DNA from: a virus
DNA: 39,670 nt
Virus genome (UHGV): UHGV-0120812
Strand: one strand, 5' to 3'
A program made the translations under genes and the position numbers. Below are positions 18,074-39,665 of the stretch, one piece after another. Numbering within the stretch: the stretch's first letter is position 1; every line of letters starts with the position of its first letter. The notes beneath the pieces are model-generated. The model was not told the DNA's origin, made no database searches, and was given only the letters and a program-made list of their open reading frames with translations.

Positions 18074-18397
18074 ATGAAGATGCCAGAAAAACATGACCTG
18101 TTAGCCGCCATTCTCGCGGCAAAGGAACAAGGCATCGGGGCAATCCTTGCGTTTGCAATGGCGTACCTTCGCGGCAGATATAATGGCGGTGCGTTTACAA
18201 AAACAGTAATCGACGCAACGATGTGCGCCATTATCGCCTGGTTCATTCGTGACCTTCTCGACTTCGCCGGACTAAGTAGCAATCTCGCTTATATAACGAG
18301 CGTGTTCATCGGCTACATCGGTACTGACTCGATTGGTTCGCTTATCAAACGCTTCGCTGCTAAAAAAGCCGGAGTAGAAGATGGTGGAAATCAATAA
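18074..18397 (+). CDS. S: Holin S (dual-start S107/S105 motif)
   Basis: 107 aa [41 protein letters not shown]..., matching lambda S. Confidence 0.95.
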
Positions 18398-18857
18398 TCA
18401 ACGTAAGGCGTTCCTCGATATGCTGGCGTGGTCAGAGGGAACTGATAACGGACGACAGAAAACCAGAAATCATGGTTATGACGTCATTGTAGGAGGAGAG
18501 CTATTCACTGATTACTCCGATCACCCTCGCAAACTTGTCACGCTAAACCCAAAACTCAAATCAACAGCCGCCGGGCGTTACCAGCTTCTTTCCCGTTGGT
18601 GGGATGCCTATTGTAAGCAGCTTGGCCTGAAAGACTTCTCTCCGAAAAGCCAGGACGCTGTGGCACTGCAACAGATTAAAGAACGTGGCGCTTTACCGAT
18701 GATTGATCGCGGTGATATTCGTCAGGCAATTGACCGTTGCAGCAATATCTGGGCTTCACTTCCGGGCGCTGGTTATGGTCAGTTCGAGCATAAGGCTGAT
18801 AGCCTGATTGCAAAATTCAAAGAAGCGGGCGGAACGGTCAGAGAGATTGAGGTATGA
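18381..18857 (+). CDS. R: Endolysin R (lytic transglycosylase)
   Basis: 158 aa [42 protein letters not shown]..., matching lambda R. Confidence 0.95.
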
Positions 18858-19291
18858 GCAGAGTCACCGCGATTATCTCCGCTCTGGTTATCTGCATCAT
18901 CGTCTGCCTGTTATGGTCTGTTAATCATTACCGTGATAACGCCATCGCCTACAAAGAGCAGCGAGATAAAGCCACATCCACAATCGCTGACATGCAGAAG
19001 CGTCAACGTGATGTAGCAGAACTCGACGCCAGATACACAAAGGAGCTTGCTGATGCTAACGCGACTATCGAAAGTCTCCGTGCTGATGTTTCTGCTGGTC
19101 GTAAGCGCCTGCAAGTCTCCGCCACCTGTGCAAAGTCAACGACCGGAGCCAGCAGCATGGGCGATGGAGAAATCCCAAGACTTACAGCAGATGCTGAACT
19201 CAATTATTACCGTCTCCGAAGTGGAATCGACAGGATAACCGCGCAGGTTAACTACTTGCAGGAGTACATCAGGACGCAATGCCTTCGATGA
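18854..19291 (+). CDS. Rz: Spanin inner-membrane subunit Rz
   Basis: 145 aa [31 protein letters not shown]...; N-terminal TM plus coiled coil; lambda Rz-like with a divergent C-terminal half. Confidence 0.9.
19047..19238 (+). CDS. Rz1: Spanin outer-membrane lipoprotein Rz1 (embedded in Rz, +1 frame)
   Basis: 63 aa [30 protein letters not shown]...: signal peptide, lipobox VSAC and proline-rich segment, wholly inside Rz. Confidence 0.75.
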
Positions 19292-34330: not shown

Positions 34331-34816
34331 CTATCTGATATTACTGCTACTGTTGCATGTTACCGTGTTTCCAAATCCTGAATTGCAGTTTGTATATGTG
34401 TCAACGCGTGTTGGGTAAGGTTGAGTTATAACAGGCTGGCGCGCTTTTTGCTCGATCGCTTGCATTGTGTTTACAGCCTGATAATTCAATAAAGCCTGCT
34501 GGAATGCTTGGCTTTGTGCTATTTGTTGTGCTTGTTCTTGGCTTTGTAATTGAACATAAAGATTCTGAAGTTCAAGTCTTGCCTGTGTGTCACTTATCTT
34601 GCCTTCATCGACACCTTGCCCGAGCATCTTCGCAGCAAGGACATACAGCTTAGGTGTTGGTGCTGATGCCATGCGAGAGTCGTTCTTCAAGCTGGCATCA
34701 AGGCAATTAGCCATATCGCTAAGCTTTGGATAGCGTTGCTCGCAACTTGCCTGATAGTCGCTTACTTTTGCGCACCCAGCCAGCAGAAGCGGGATAATTA
34801 ACAGTGATTTTTTCAT
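34331..34816 (-). CDS. Lipoprotein, accessory gene (candidate superinfection-exclusion or conversion factor)
   Basis: 161 aa from MKKSLLIIPLLLAGC (signal peptide plus LAGC lipobox); Q-rich helical middle; convergent with gp16. Confidence 0.65.
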   Translation of the reverse strand: MKKSLLIIPLLLAGCAKVSDYQASCEQRYPKLSDMANCLDASLKNDSRMASAPTPKLYVLAAKMLGQGVDEGKISDTQARLELQNLYVQLQSQEQAQQIAQSQAFQQALLNYQAVNTMQAIEQKARQPVITQPYPTRVDTYTNCNSGFGNTVTCNSSSNIR

Positions 34817-34850
34817 ATAATTAACTCTCCTTAGTTTTGCGCAGGATACC

Positions 34851-35216
34851 ATGAAAAAAGTTAACATTGGAAACGTACCAAAGATGCTCGTTCCGCTCTT
34901 TGAGAGCGGTACAATTGTGTTTTGTAGAGACTTTCCAGAATGGCAACGCCTGCATCAAAAACTTGGCGTTGACGTGCATGACTCGGACGCCAACGGAGCG
35001 TCTCATACAATGAGTAGCGAGAATGGTGTTTTGCATGTGATAGGCGTGTTCAATGGCAAACTATCTACTATTGCCCATGAGTGCGCTCACATGGCATTCG
35101 ATATCTGCTCAAGGGTAGGTGTTGATGTTGAACCAGGAAGAGCCAACGAGACTTACTGCTACTTAATGAGCAGGCTTGTTGAGTTCTGCGAGCGACATAT
35201 CAAAAAGCCGGAGTGA
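34851..35216 (+). CDS. Hypothetical protein with HExxH motif (possible small zinc metallopeptidase)
   Basis: 121 aa; AHECAHMAFD contains HExxH; divergent from the lipoprotein gene across a 34-bp gap. Confidence 0.55.
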   Translation: MKKVNIGNVPKMLVPLFESGTIVFCRDFPEWQRLHQKLGVDVHDSDANGASHTMSSENGVLHVIGVFNGKLSTIAHECAHMAFDICSRVGVDVEPGRANETYCYLMSRLVEFCERHIKKPE

Positions 35217-35508: not shown

Positions 35509-35760
35509 TCAGGTGGGTTTTTTGTACAAATCCTTCAGCGTATCAAACACCATCTTCTTAACAAGCTCTGACTGCTCATCAGCGATGCGTTCCGCATCGT
35601 CTCGATAGCCTGAAATTTTGGATGGCTTTGATACAGCATCAGTCACTATCTGAACTAATTCTGAATTAAGAGAGCGGCCATTGGATTTGGCTCGCTGTTT
35701 TAGTTTTTCCTTTAATTCGTAAGGTAGCCGCAGATTAAATTGCGGGTCATCTCTTCCCAT
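35509..35760 (-). CDS. mnt: Mnt repressor (ribbon-helix-helix, Arc/MetJ family)
   Basis: 83 aa; DDPQFNLRLPYELKEKLKQRAKSNGRSLNSEL...YRDDAERIADEQSELVKKMVFDTLKDLYKK resembles P22 Mnt. Confidence 0.85.
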   Translation of the reverse strand: MGRDDPQFNLRLPYELKEKLKQRAKSNGRSLNSELVQIVTDAVSKPSKISGYRDDAERIADEQSELVKKMVFDTLKDLYKKPT

Positions 35761-35907: not shown

Positions 35908-38046
35908 ATGACAGACATTACAGCCAATGTTGTAGTGAGCATGCCTTCGCAACTCTTCACTATGGCGCGTTCTTTTAAAGCCGTAGCTAATGGCAAAATT
36001 TATATCGGTAAAATTGACACTGACCCGGTAAATCCTGATAACCAGATTCAGGTCTATGTTGAGAACGAAGATGGTTCTCACGTTCCTGTTGCACAGCCAA
36101 TCGTCATCAATGCCGCTGGGTATCCAGTATATAACGGACAGATTGCCAAGTTCGTAACTGTGCAAGGCCATTCTATGGCTGTTTATGATGCGTATGGTAC
36201 ACAGCAGTTCTATTTTCCGAATGTGCTGAAGTATGACCCTGATCAACTACGGCAGCAATTAGAAGACCCGGATGGAGCTAAAAAATATCCTGAATTGCAG
36301 ATATCTCGGTGGAGGGACGATTGTGATGTAAGAGGGTGGGGGGCAAAAGGCGATGGTATAACAGATGATACATCTGCATTGATCTTGGCTGCAGAATATG
36401 CACGAGAATCATCCAGAACATTACGAGCGGAAGGTAATTTTATTATTACGGAGACATTAAATCTTCGTAATGTCAGCCTCGAAATGACCAATGCTGTTTT
36501 TACCATATCCCACTCAGGAATAGGGGTATTGCTTGGCGGGAATGCATCAAACCCTAACAACCCAAGACAAAACTTCGGAACGATTATCAGAAATTCTGGT
36601 ATTTCATCTGAAACGACACCGGATATTCGTATTATCGGGGCAAAAGGGCAGCATATAAACATTGAGCGTTGCGACTACTTACAGTTATATGCAAATTATA
36701 ATGCTTCGGTGGCATCGACGGATTATTCAATAGCATACTCAACCTTTAACCTGAAAAAGGTCGATACAATTCATTTTCTTGGAGTTGAGAAAGGATGGAT
36801 AAATGAAAACTATTTTTATCTGAATCGTACGAATAATATCATTTTCGCTGATAATCCATATCATCATAACCACAATAAGTTTTATGGTGGAACTATGGAG
36901 GGGGCAGGTAAAATTGATATTCAAAGAGGTGATAACAATTACTTCTACGGGTTTCGTTTTGAACGATATCCATCATCCCCAACTAACCAACAGTTGATAA
37001 TTAACTTTGGTGAATATACGTGGAATAACTCAATTGAAGCTACATGGCTTTCATCTCCTGCGTATACAAATGAGCCATACAATCCATCGCCTTACACTTA
37101 TGTCGAGGTAACTGATAATGGCAAGGGGAATGCAGTATTTCATATTCAGGAAAATATATCCGATGAAGTAACATTGTTTTCTTTAAATGCTAACACCCCA
37201 TTTATATCCAGTGCTAACAATGGAGAAGTTGGTGCATTAGCATATCAAACAGATGTTGATGGTTTATATAATATCCGTCACCTGGTTTCTTCTAAGTTTG
37301 CTTTTATGCGGAATTTTGGGTTGTTATGGGAATCTGGAGATGTACCAGTAAGAAATGGTGATATGTTTACATTCTCAGCAGATACGGCATCGTTTCGCAT
37401 TTACCTGTATGCATTAGATAGAGATGGGAATGTCATAACCTCACAAACAGAAGCCATAACTTCTTCTATGCAATGGGATTCTGCCAACCATAGGTATGTC
37501 ACTGCTGTTAATATTTCTTCCATTAAGATCAGGATTAATAATGAAGGGGTTCCAGTTAGTGCAATTCGTTTAGCTGTGTATTCTGGTGGTAATGTAGTGA
37601 ATACTGCATTTTCATGGCTATGCTTTACTGGTAGATATTACAAAAATAGCACATCCTTACCAAGGAAAAGTAAAAATACTTTTACTTTAAAACAAGGGAA
37701 AGCACTTACTTATTATAGTGATACTGATATTAGTATGGCTAACATTGGTTCAGGAATTACCTGTTATAAAACCGATTTATCTGAACTCAAAATTAATCTT
37801 GTAAGGGGCAGGTATGTAGTGAAATCGATTTCAGGTAGTGAAATATATGTATACCAAGGAACAATCACTTATTACCCTCCACTCAGTGATATCAAATTGG
37901 TATATACGGATGGGATTGAAAATAAATTATTAGATGTGCAAAGCATCTCTTCAGGAAAGATTACTCTTGCAGATACAGTACCATCAGCTATATCTGCAGG
38001 CGATTTTGTAGATGTTATTGTTACAAAGACGAAATCTATTTTATGA
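35908..38046 (+). CDS. Tailspike: P22-type head-binding domain plus divergent beta-helix-like receptor-binding domain (candidate polysaccharide depolymerase)
   Basis: 712 aa; first ~113 residues [43 protein letters not shown]...NVLKYDPDQ match P22/HK620 tailspike N-termini; remainder unrelated to P22 and AT-rich. Confidence 0.9.
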
Positions 38047-38080
38047 TGTGTTTATTTATCCTTATGTTAAAGGAGCGATA

Positions 38081-38368
38081 ATGGATATAACACCTTTCCT
38101 TCATGCGTTTTGTGCTGTGGCTGCGCAGGTACTGATTGGTCTTTTTACCGGAAACTGGGCTTACGGTGCGATAGCCGGTTGTACGTTCTTCATTGCGCGT
38201 GAACACACCCAGGCAGAATATCGCTGGACAGAAAGGTTTGGGAAAGGGAAACGTATCAACATGCCGTGGTGGGGCGGTTTTGATCCGCGCGTGTGGGATG
38301 TGGGAAGTCTGTTGGATTTTTCTTTCCCAATTATCGGATGCTTATTGGTATGGATTCTTGCATCGTAG
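38081..38368 (+). CDS. Hypothetical small membrane protein between tailspike and integrase
   Basis: 95 aa from MDITPFLHAFCAVAAQVLIGLFTGNWAYGAIAGCTFFIA...; AAGGAG RBS 7 nt upstream; two predicted TM helices. Confidence 0.6.
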   Translation: MDITPFLHAFCAVAAQVLIGLFTGNWAYGAIAGCTFFIAREHTQAEYRWTERFGKGKRINMPWWGGFDPRVWDVGSLLDFSFPIIGCLLVWILAS

Positions 38369-38462
38369 CGAACACATAATTACCGATGAAACAAAACTGA
38401 GACACACAAAGCTTTGCACTGGATTGCAAGGCTTTGTTCTCTTCGATAGTGGTTAAGGTGGA

Positions 38463-39620
38463 TTACTCCACCTTTTCATCAATCCAGTCAGCCCACCACT
38501 GCATCATTTCTCTGCGCTTATCGAGATACTGAGCATGGTTGTAAATTCCGCGCACAGATCCGCCGTTGGCATGTGCCAGTTGCACTTCAATAGCATCAGC
38601 GGGCCATTCGTGCTCGTTCATAATCGTGCTGAATTCATGCCTGAATCCGTGACCGCTTTCCAGACCCTCATAGCCTATTTGTTTGATCACAAGCAATACC
38701 GCGTTCTCGCAGATTGGCTTCTTCTTATCGTTGCGCCCGGCAAAAACAAACTCTGATACTGGTTTGGTGATGGAGCTTAGCGTAGTGAGAAGTTCAATAA
38801 CCTGGTCCGACATCGGAACCACATGAATCTTGCGTCCCTTCATCACATTGGCGTCGATGGTGATAATCCCGTTTTCAAAATCGACGTTCTTCCATAGCAT
38901 GGAACGAAGCTCTTTTGTTCTGAGGGCTGTGTAGCGTAAAACTTTGGTCGCAATGAGCGATACGATACTTCCTGAAAATGTTGCCAGTGCTTTGTTGAAT
39001 GCCGGGATCTGGTCTGCTGGAAGAAACGGGAAGTTCTTCTTGCGGTATCCCTTCATGGCGTCAGCAAGGTCAGGTGCCGGGTTGTATTTAGCCCTTCCGG
39101 TGACAATAGCGTAACGGAAAACTTCGCCGCATCTTCTGCGGGCTTTGTTGGCTCGCTCCATTGCACCGCGATCTTCAAACCTGCGGATTACTTCCAGCAG
39201 TTGCATCGGCTCAATATCCTGAATCTCAAGACCGCCGATGATGGGTAAAATGTCGTCATCAAACATTTTGGCAAGTTCAGTCGCATACCCTACTGACCAT
39301 ACTTGCTTCTTGTGCTCGTACCATTCTTTGTAAATCGCACTAAAGGAATTGTTGTTAGACGAAGCCTTTTTCGCCTTTACCGGATCGATGCCAACCGAGA
39401 TGTCTTTCCTCGCAGTCCATGCCTTATCCCTTGCCTCCTGCAAAGTCATTAGCGGATATTTTCCTACGGTCAGGACTTTCTCCTTACCGTCAATCTTGTA
39501 GCGAAGCTGCCATACCTTTTTCCCTGATACAGGGACATAAAGGTACAGGCCATTACCATCGAGTAGGCGGTATGGTTTTTCTTTCGGCTTAGCTGCTTCA
39601 ATCTGCTTAACGGTGAGCAT
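38463..39620 (-). CDS. intS: Tyrosine integrase, P4 family (N-terminal arm-binding domain)
   Basis: About 385 aa from MLTVKQIEAAKPKEKPYRLLDGNGLYLYV...; C-terminal HGFRHEF and VQLAHANGGSVRGIYNH catalytic motifs; resembles KplE1 IntS as recalled. ORF-track GTG at 39656 is an alternative start. Confidence 0.9.
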   Translation of the reverse strand: MLTVKQIEAAKPKEKPYRLLDGNGLYLYVPVSGKKVWQLRYKIDGKEKVLTVGKYPLMTLQEARDKAWTARKDISVGIDPVKAKKASSNNNSFSAIYKEWYEHKKQVWSVGYATELAKMFDDDILPIIGGLEIQDIEPMQLLEVIRRFEDRGAMERANKARRRCGEVFRYAIVTGRAKYNPAPDLADAMKGYRKKNFPFLPADQIPAFNKALATFSGSIVSLIATKVLRYTALRTKELRSMLWKNVDFENGIITIDANVMKGRKIHVVPMSDQVIELLTTLSSITKPVSEFVFAGRNDKKKPICENAVLLVIKQIGYEGLESGHGFRHEFSTIMNEHEWPADAIEVQLAHANGGSVRGIYNHAQYLDKRREMMQWWADWIDEKVE

Positions 39621-39665
39621 GGGTAAAAATCCGGTGGGTAAAATTATTTTATCCACTTTTTACCC
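39621..39665. promoter_or_regulatory. Clustered GGGTAAAA/TTTTACCC motifs upstream of int (candidate Int/RDF binding sites of the att region)
   Basis: GGGTAAAAA at 39621..39629, GGGTAAAA at 39636..39643, inverted TTTTTACCC at 39657..39665; TTTTACCC recurs at 36..43 and 48..55. Confidence 0.5.

Follow-up and report, generated by a model that had tools for sequence, protein, structure and literature searches.

Small inner-membrane proteins that act alone against superinfection are encoded by temperate and virulent phages. T4 Imm, P22 SieA, and HK97 gp15 are expressed early or from the prophage, each acts on one entry route, and gp15 is also embedded among tail genes. Known exclusion proteins evolve rapidly, and lysogens express them. 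Among the exclusion genes, cor (phi80, N15, HK022) and llp (T5) adjoin a gene for host specificity or receptor binding where the tail region ends, and their products are outer-membrane lipoproteins that block one receptor (FhuA). Two further types of small phage membrane protein bear comparison: the class I holins, such as lambda S and P22 gp13, which have three transmembrane helices, and GtrA, a Pfam family of small polytopic inner-membrane proteins of about 120 amino acids (aa) with four transmembrane helices. Here, we analyzed a 95-aa open reading frame (ORF) at 38081..38368 on the plus strand of the virus genome UHGV-0120812, the whole 39,670 nucleotides of which are referred to as the window. 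Our analysis revealed a real and selected gene that is the terminal cistron of a receptor-binding-gene transcription unit and encodes a predicted three-helix inner-membrane protein. For its function, we tentatively favor a block of superinfection at the inner membrane.

A conserved and selected gene

The ORF starts with the ATG at 38081 and ends with the stop codon at 38366-38368. The ribosome-binding site (RBS) AAGGAG (38070..38075, plus strand) is located five bases before the ATG, in agreement with the first-pass annotation, and the loop quoted in that annotation, EHTQAEYRWTERFGKGKRINMPWWGG, was found in the translation. RefSeq annotates an identical 288-nt coding sequence in identical prophages. 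A longer frame from 38012, which overlaps the tailspike gene, was rejected because the homologues and the RefSeq entries begin at MDITP. The product is a full-length member of PHROG 1443 (E = 1.2e-53; residues 1-94 on profile positions 1-94 of 97), a catalogued but unstudied phage family.

A search of one protein collection retrieved 180 homologues, an exhaustive HMMER search of another yielded 465 clusters (50% identity), and intact homologues number in the thousands. The best 120 of the 180 and the best 150 of the 465 were 63-146 aa long; among these 150, the longest relatives carried a loop insertion only and the distant ones showed no domain fusion, and the precomputed annotation placed no Pfam domain on the 120. 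The names given in the source databases were only “hypothetical” or “Ybl63”. In a megablast search, 1881 of 5426 complete E. coli genomes (35%) carried the gene. CFT073, Nissle 1917, LF82, and E. coli B are among them, and the copy number per carrying genome has a median of two and a maximum of seven. The family is largely limited to Proteobacteria and their phages, and protein identity is 55-60% across bacterial classes; at 45-60% identity, where DNA homology is gone, the conserved residues described below stay invariant.

The reading frame was open in all 80 copies from IMG/VR viral contigs, and the ratio of nonsynonymous to synonymous substitution rates (dN/dS) was 0.15 overall and 0.08 in the loop, where dS reached 0.34. 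The full-length PHROG match, the many homologues, the open frames, and the low dN/dS show that the ORF did not arise by chance: it is a real gene under purifying selection. The possibility that it is a fragment of a larger disrupted gene, raised in the first-pass annotation, can thus be set aside.

Virulent Aeromonas jumbo phages carry homologues too, not close to tail genes, and single chromosomal copies are present in Aeromonas, where the flanks are syntenic in three species (four genomes), and in Leclercia, where the copy lies at a fixed boundary. These intact Aeromonas and Leclercia copies are vertically inherited. No constant chromosomal neighbour was found; pirin, RIO kinase, dcp, ligA, pnp, and HerA genes occurred without pattern.

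Searches with the window protein returned only a sub-threshold match to the PhoR N-terminal domain in Pfam (E = 0.19) and no match in NCBIfam. No PADLOC defence-protein model matched even at E values up to 10, and a profile search against PDB sequences gave no match at E up to 10. No fold match was found either. The family was not found in the full-text literature under its accessions, its database identifiers, or the name “Ybl63”. A connection with svsR, a small RNA encoded by a lambdoid prophage, was rejected, as svsR lies in cI and is unrelated.

Predicted topology and conserved residues

AlphaFold2, run on an alignment of 57 sequences, gave a model with a predicted local distance difference test score (pLDDT) of 93.9 and helices at residues 4-23, 26-53, and 74-94. 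The first-pass annotation had described a membrane protein with two hydrophobic helices. The prediction of a membrane protein stands and the count does not, as AlphaFold2 predicts three helices: the positions of the first two indicate that the first hydrophobic stretch (residues 4-39; 38090..38197, plus strand) is a helical hairpin, composed of helix 1 (4-23) and the membrane part of helix 2 (26-39). The hairpin contains H8 and Q16. Helix 2 exits the membrane as the invariant segment REHTQAEYRW, a juxtamembrane helix which, together with the Trp-rich loop MPWWGGFDPRVW, makes up residues 40-75 (38198..38305, plus strand). Conservation within the protein peaks in this region, for which a cytoplasmic location is predicted. 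Residues 74-94 (38300..38362, plus strand), with S76, D79, and P83, form the predicted third transmembrane helix.

Among 169 diverse PHROG 1443 members, conservation was 96% for H8, 100% for R40, 99% for E41, Q44, and E46, 98% for A45, W72, and P83, 92% for R48 and R58, and 87% for D79. Lys and Arg averaged 6.4 on the side of the N terminus and loop versus 0.74 on the other side; by the positive-inside rule, this bias places the loop, H8, and D79 in the cytoplasm and the C terminus in the periplasm. The model thus predicts three inner-membrane helices with the N terminus inside and the C terminus outside, and almost nothing of the protein would be exposed at the periplasmic side. A polar cluster of H8, R40, E41, Q44, E46, R48, R58, W72, D79, and P83 is predicted at the cytoplasmic face, the clustering of H8, E41, E46, and D79 in three dimensions being read from the helix topology alone. 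The protein has no charged C-terminal tail, the C-terminal tails of the family averaging 0.6 Lys and Arg and 0.2 Asp and Glu. A lipoprotein, suggested by IAGC at residues 31-34, was rejected because C34 is 38% conserved, the N terminus lacks a basic residue, and the hydrophobic stretch extends over 28 residues.

Association with receptor-binding genes

As described in the first-pass annotation and confirmed by Pfam and the ORF map, the gene is located between the tailspike and integrase genes. The upstream cistron is the tailspike gene (35908..38046, plus strand), which consists of a P22-type head-binding N-terminal domain and an AT-rich receptor-binding part (Pfam Head_binding, E = 4.5e-67; PHROG 18162 tail fibre, E = 7e-300). 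Our comparison revealed that a receptor-binding-protein gene, tailspike or tail fibre, upstream and on the same strand, is the constant neighbour of the family. The order of tail gene and then ORF is shared by siphoviruses, podoviruses, and myoviruses of alpha-, beta-, and gamma-proteobacteria. The upstream gene encodes a tailspike in P22-like phages (the window and Gally, a prophage of E. coli LF82) and a fibre in lambdoid siphophages (phage 21, IdasGreatGrand, the “Lambda_ev” isolates, and DLP12 of E. coli B). The same arrangement was found in prophages of Comamonas, Pantoea, Acidovorax, and Chelativorans, and in the P2-like phiHAP-1 and related contigs the gene lies between the fibre genes and the sheath gene.

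Scored against a reference set of fibres and spikes, 65 of 80 IMG/VR contigs had a tailspike or fibre gene upstream, with a median gap of 37 nt. All ten metagenomic copies that were looked up followed a tail fibre, tailspike, or tail accessory gene, the type of which was judged in some cases from size and position only, and stop and start codons overlapped or abutted in six of the ten. In many metagenomic phages, the gene ends a tail-fibre operon and no integrase gene is nearby. The downstream neighbours vary and include intS, a tfa remnant, the prophage end, sitABCD, the avd and reverse transcriptase unit of a diversity-generating retroelement (DGR), head genes, the Septu defence genes (PtuAB), and a lysis cassette. 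The ORF is the terminal cistron of a receptor-binding-gene transcription unit.

A second family of about 93 aa, PHROG 1361 / 18574, often adjoins the three-helix gene in E. coli lambdoid phages, Comamonas prophages, and metagenomic phages, and is absent from the window. It is apparently soluble, has the motif ..VDVIG..TG..G.P..GyhVN, and may be a functional partner of the three-helix protein. Its loci, given here with the numbers of the loci compared, are L002:4723-5001 (phage 21), L138:3995-4276 (DLP12 of E. coli B), L095:4714-5001, L098:4432-4998, L154:1548-1826, L148:4475-4999, and L151:5312-5596. In Comamonas nitrativorans and Pigmentiphaga humi, the three-helix gene stands between a probable, unannotated DGR target (tail-fibre) gene and avd plus reverse transcriptase genes (L113:3785-7054 and L115:3824-7054).

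Transcription

An alignment of eight contexts showed that similarity starts at the RBS, the first conserved bases of the mobile cassette, and that the upstream sequences are unrelated; megablast matches to other genomes begin at window positions 38068-38095. Since conservation between contexts starts at the RBS, the cassette has no promoter of its own. The GC content is about 50% in the ORF versus 30-38% over 36700-38050 of the tailspike gene, which indicates a mosaic joint just ahead of the RBS. The low-GC stretch, compared with 42-50% elsewhere in the window, identifies a recently exchanged specificity domain between the conserved head-binding domain and the conserved ORF. A weak sigma-70-like match, TTGTTA-18-TATGAT (38018..38047, plus strand; 9 of 12 consensus positions), falls within the tailspike 3' end and may serve as a promoter in this particular context, outside the conserved cassette; a consensus scan found 11 such sites in the region against 10.8 expected by shuffling.

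Downstream of the ORF, a 94-bp spacer (38369-38462) extends to the stop codon of the minus-strand integrase gene (38463), which agrees with the approximately 95 bp of non-coding DNA described previously. The RNA fold of 38360-38490 has a free energy of -38.6 kcal/mol (z = -4.25 versus shuffles) and contains two strong hairpins. Hairpin 1 (38406..38437, plus strand) has 13 bp followed by UCUCUUC and is likely the intrinsic terminator of the tailspike-ORF transcript. Hairpin 2, AAGGTGGA-ttac-TCCACCTT (38455..38474, no strand assigned), overlaps the intS stop codon and may be a bidirectional terminator. Judged from the sequence, the two hairpins would close the tailspike-ORF transcription unit against the 3' end of intS.

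Expression was assessed from published RNA sequencing (RNA-seq) data for E. coli LF82 (PMC9928086, S1 Table), in which three homologues, in the prophages Gally, Perceval, and Tritos, were verified by translation. Values are log2 of fragments per kilobase per million reads plus 5 for two replicates. The Gally homologue LF82_765, which is 92% identical to the window protein, was at background in lysogeny broth (LB; 3.75 / 4.53) and reached 8.38 / 8.72 in macrophages at 6 h; the Gally tailspike gene rose from 3.95 / 3.85 to 7.77 / 7.78 (PMC9928086). In Dulbecco's modified Eagle medium (DMEM) and in macrophages, this copy was up approximately 20-fold alongside the tailspike gene, while the Gally terminase, portal, and injection genes stayed at background throughout (PMC9928086). 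The Perceval homologue rose modestly together with the side tail fibre gene under these conditions, from about background in LB (3.19 / 3.79) to 5.92 / 5.58 in macrophages at 6 h (PMC9928086). The Tritos homologue stayed low, at 2.82 / 3.79 (background) in LB and 3.29 / 3.55 in macrophages at 6 h, and the fibre gene upstream of it rose from 2.88 / 2.54 to 7.05 / 7.04 (PMC9928086).

A GGGGC...GCCCC-TTTT hairpin is located between the Tritos fibre gene and the homologue. Contexts of the Tritos and CFT073 type share this terminator hairpin, aaGGGGCcgagcGCCCCgttttatt, between the tail-fibre stop codon and the ORF (L144:480-515, minus strand; L137:4960-5000 in CFT073), and its position fits the drop in the RNA-seq signal. 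Taken together, the RNA-seq values of the three homologues indicate that the gene is transcribed only when it is carried along with the tail gene upstream of it; antiterminated late transcription presumably also expresses it. The concern that the ORF might not be transcribed was not borne out.

In all three LF82 prophages (L143, L162, and L144), genes of the receptor-binding end were induced 10- to 40-fold in macrophages and DMEM. The induced sets comprised the immI region and the tailspike gene, or stf and the 93-aa gene, and the remaining late operon was silent. The pattern points to promoters within the AT-rich tail-fibre genes of these prophages or ahead of them. The homologues are not classed as morons in LF82 (PMC9928086). 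Of the features that mark a moron, a downstream terminator and a deviant base composition were found (the z score and GC values given above); a promoter of its own and operon-independent expression in the lysogen were not, the Tritos copy being silent behind its terminator. The main text of a CRISPR interference gut screen of LF82 does not name the Gally copy.

Comparison with gtr genes

The first-pass annotation had stated that this slot holds O-antigen gtr genes in P22-like and KplE1-like prophages, and this is correct: P22 carries gtrABC at the equivalent place and K-12 CPS-53/KplE1 carries yfdGHI next to intS. In the K-12 CPS-53 slot, gtrABC (yfdGHI) is followed by yodE, which encodes a small toxic protein (L142:5498-5644), and no PHROG 1443 member is present. 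GtrA (YfdG) resembles the ORF product in being a small polytopic inner-membrane protein encoded in the same slot, beside intS or in the gap between tailspike and integrase genes. The similarity ends there. BLASTP of the ORF protein against K-12 YfdG gave an E value of 25, hhalign against P22 GtrA a probability of 0.2%, and Pfam no GtrA match, so that the suggested comparison with gtrA excludes a truncated gtr remnant. P22 GtrA works with GtrB and GtrC, but no gtrB or gtrC accompanies the ORF, which is the sole ORF between the tailspike gene and intS. In addition, the ORF shares the strand of the tailspike gene; in P22 and CPS-53, the gtr genes are encoded on the strand of the integrase gene, and the P22 annotation gives them a promoter of their own.

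In strain CUVM3, a family-2 glycosyltransferase gene (minus strand) and an IS3 element are inserted between the tailspike gene and the ORF-intS block (L005:2770-5145), which shows that a conversion-type gene and the ORF can share the slot. The proposal of a minimal membrane accessory gene replacing a gtr cluster therefore needs to be divided. An intact, stand-alone membrane gene is present; a slot-specific gtr substitute it is not, since it has the opposite orientation, coexists with a glycosyltransferase gene, ends fibre operons elsewhere, and lacks a conserved promoter, and since three homologues are silent in LB. The ORF is a real membrane accessory gene and not a gtr replacement.

Possible function

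We tentatively consider a superinfection-exclusion-like block at the inner membrane, by analogy with T4 Imm, P22 SieA, and HK97 gp15, to be a possible function of the protein. It would be made with the tailspike late in infection and, in some lysogens, also by read-through from the tail gene; it would then engage a conserved inner-membrane component and make the cell refractory to further phage entry. The protein would presumably act alone, since no fixed partner gene is present in the window. Among the roles considered, this is the only one that would fit temperate phages, virulent phages, and domesticated chromosomal copies alike. The homologues in virulent Aeromonas jumbo phages and the vertically inherited copies of Aeromonas and Leclercia are consistent with a role in entry or defence, and the Septu (PtuAB) and HerA genes that adjoin some homologues are consistent with exclusion and lend it some support. 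An inner-membrane location, as in the known exclusion proteins, is predicted by the three helices and the positive-inside rule. Like cor and llp, the gene adjoins a receptor-binding gene, a precedent that also lends exclusion some support, but the protein differs from Cor and Llp in having no valid lipoprotein signal and in being predicted to be polytopic in the inner membrane.

Several observations weigh against exclusion. The family has no phenotype on record, and PADLOC has no model that matches the protein itself. It has no sequence relation to Imm, SieA, or gp15, and a SieA homologue was rejected (hhalign probability 0.06%). It is far more conserved than these proteins, as the identity across classes and the loop dN/dS indicate, and its homologues are silent in LB-grown lysogens, unlike known exclusion proteins. 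The same protein accompanies unrelated receptor-binding proteins and three tail types, so that it cannot be specific to one entry route. The near-invariant charged residues look more like a catalytic or ligand-binding site, and in no fewer than five phage lineages a lysis cassette follows immediately behind the gene. Our confidence in exclusion is therefore low, because the family is highly conserved, is silent in LB, and occurs irrespective of the type of receptor-binding protein.

The position ahead of lysis cassettes raises the alternative of an accessory holin or lysis-timing factor that is encoded last in the late transcript and sets or sharpens the time of lysis, which we regard as unlikely. 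With approximately 95 aa and three predicted transmembrane helices, the protein has the size and layout of a class I holin and is encoded by the last gene of a late unit, as in T7 (17.5 after 17) and T4 (t after 38), in which the holin gene follows a fibre gene and is expressed late. Several relatives adjoin an endolysin gene, as holins do: the gene is directly upstream of lysis cassettes in Comamonas (L098) and Acidovorax (L107), and in L107 no other membrane protein precedes the signal-anchor-release (SAR)-type endolysin; cassettes also lie directly downstream in L146 (Phage_holin_3_3 and muramidase), L148 (GH108), and L151 and L158 (Phage_lysozyme). However, most of these cassettes already have one or two holin-like proteins, and the occurrence of the same protein beside unrelated holins speaks against an antiholin directed at one particular holin. 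A complete holin/endolysin/Rz cassette is present in the window 19 kb away (18074-19291), and the lambdoid and P22-like copies stay with the tail fibre genes and not with S-R-Rz. Of the properties of class I holins, that of a small transmembrane protein is present by prediction only, whereas neither an adjoining endolysin or spanin gene nor a charged tail was found beside or in the ORF. Moreover, conservation is concentrated in a soluble loop of 35 residues, intact copies are kept in the chromosomes of Aeromonas and Leclercia, and no match to Pfam or PHROG holin families or to P22 gp13 was detected; a homologue of the P22 holin was rejected for lack of homology. We also doubt that the protein is a minimal membrane enzyme or ligand-binding module that acts at the cytoplasmic face on a lipid-linked envelope precursor, such as undecaprenyl-phosphate-linked glycans, and so alters the surface glycans recognized by the neighbouring receptor-binding protein, which would amount to lysogenic or lytic conversion. 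Such a module would account for the near-invariant H, R, E, Q, E, R, W, D, and P in 169 members, the dN/dS of 0.08 in the loop, and the predicted position of the conserved polar residues at one membrane face. The restriction of the family largely to Proteobacteria and their phages, the coupling to tailspikes that bind or degrade glycans (pectate-lyase fold, Peptidase_S74), the gtr genes in the same slot of P22 and CPS-53, and the chromosomal copies kept without any phage point in the same direction. By analogy only, the 121-aa, three-helix diacylglycerol kinase DgkA illustrates that a three-helix protein of approximately 100 residues with conserved acidic residues at its cytoplasmic interface can be an enzyme. 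Nevertheless, no sequence or fold similarity to any enzyme was detected, a catalyst of 95 aa, with a loop of 35 residues, would be very small, no constant partner such as a glycosyltransferase was found, the virulent jumbo-phage copies lie away from tail genes, and the gene is silent in LB-grown lysogens.

A role of the DNA itself, in which the conserved stretch is a landing pad that promotes the swapping of tailspike and fibre cassettes and the protein is incidental, appears very improbable. The variable AT-rich receptor-binding part is indeed flanked by the conserved head-binding domain and the ORF, mosaic joints fall exactly at the RBS and within the last helix (near 38320), and the ORF travels with fibre cassettes, leaving tfa or intS remnants behind it. 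Selection nonetheless acts at the amino-acid level (dN/dS 0.15, with dS up to 0.34 in the loop), the residues are invariant where DNA homology is lost, and the model is confidently folded; a landing-pad effect could be an added benefit rather than the main role. A truncated gtr/oac remnant or a small hydrophobic toxin has next to no probability. It has in its favor only the position in a conversion slot, the hydrophobicity, and the toxic YodE in the same region of K-12 CPS-53, and it is already refuted by the full-length family match (1-94 of 97) and the thousands of intact homologues. It is also opposed by the absence of similarity to GtrA or YfdG, the purifying selection, and the stable chromosomal orthologues. 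The Rfam search found no family in the window, antisense RNA included. The toxin-like function that had been considered for the ORF is unlikely because the intact Aeromonas and Leclercia copies are inherited vertically. Finally, PHROG 1443 might represent a new class of phage late proteins, which we also consider improbable: a three-helix module with an invariant His/Arg-Glu/Gln/Glu/Trp/Asp site that binds or modifies a universal inner-membrane component. Its target would be, for example, a polyprenyl-phosphate-linked precursor or a conserved membrane machine. The gene of such a module, translationally coupled to receptor-binding genes, would have been domesticated in some chromosomes, and the module may work together with the 93-aa PHROG 1361 / 18574 family. 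If true, this would tie what the phage recognizes on the outside of the cell to what it produces inside the infected cell.

The gene is among the commonest unexplained genes of E. coli prophages. Its rigid placement after a tailspike or fibre gene and its near-invariant motif point to one conserved job, either in host recognition or at the end of the late programme. The exchange of tailspike or fibre cassettes in engineered phages or tailocins probably moves or loses this gene unnoticed.

Prophage context

The window represents a P22-like prophage that is integrated at argW. Over its final 801 bases it matches, at 100% identity, chromosomes that carry the tailspike gene, the ORF, and intS side by side. 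The tRNA-Arg gene (argW) is located beyond the 5' end of intS in those lysogens, and the attachment site lies there. An attP site in the 94-bp spacer was rejected, since the three genes stay joined in lysogens and tRNA-Arg lies past the intS 5' end. The integrase gene (38463..39656, minus strand) is convergent with the ORF and encodes a tyrosine integrase of the P4/IntS type (Pfam Phage_integrase, Phage_int_M, and Arm-DNA-bind_3); the RefSeq start is the ATG at 39620.

Gally is integrated at the tor locus and has its integrase gene at the opposite prophage end. Even so, 84 nt left over from the intS 3' end still follow the ORF (L143:4892-4975), which indicates that the ORF, the terminator, and the intS 3' end moved as one block.

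Defence-type genes were observed beside several homologues: a Septu-like PtuA/PtuB (PDC-M01) pair in phage IdasGreatGrand (L003:4657-7121), PtuA in Silvania confinis (L106:2779-4771), and a defence-type HerA in a Sphingomicrobium genome (L128:3186-4883). In the window, no arc-ant pair precedes the tailspike gene. The position of P22 sieA is occupied by a lipoprotein-like ORF, MKKSLLIIPLLLAGC..., of PHROG 6067, and next come an ORF of PHROG 1365 and a repressor gene of the Mnt/Arc type; the three ORFs of this region are at 34331-34867 (minus strand), 34851-35216 (plus strand), and 35509-35760 (minus strand).

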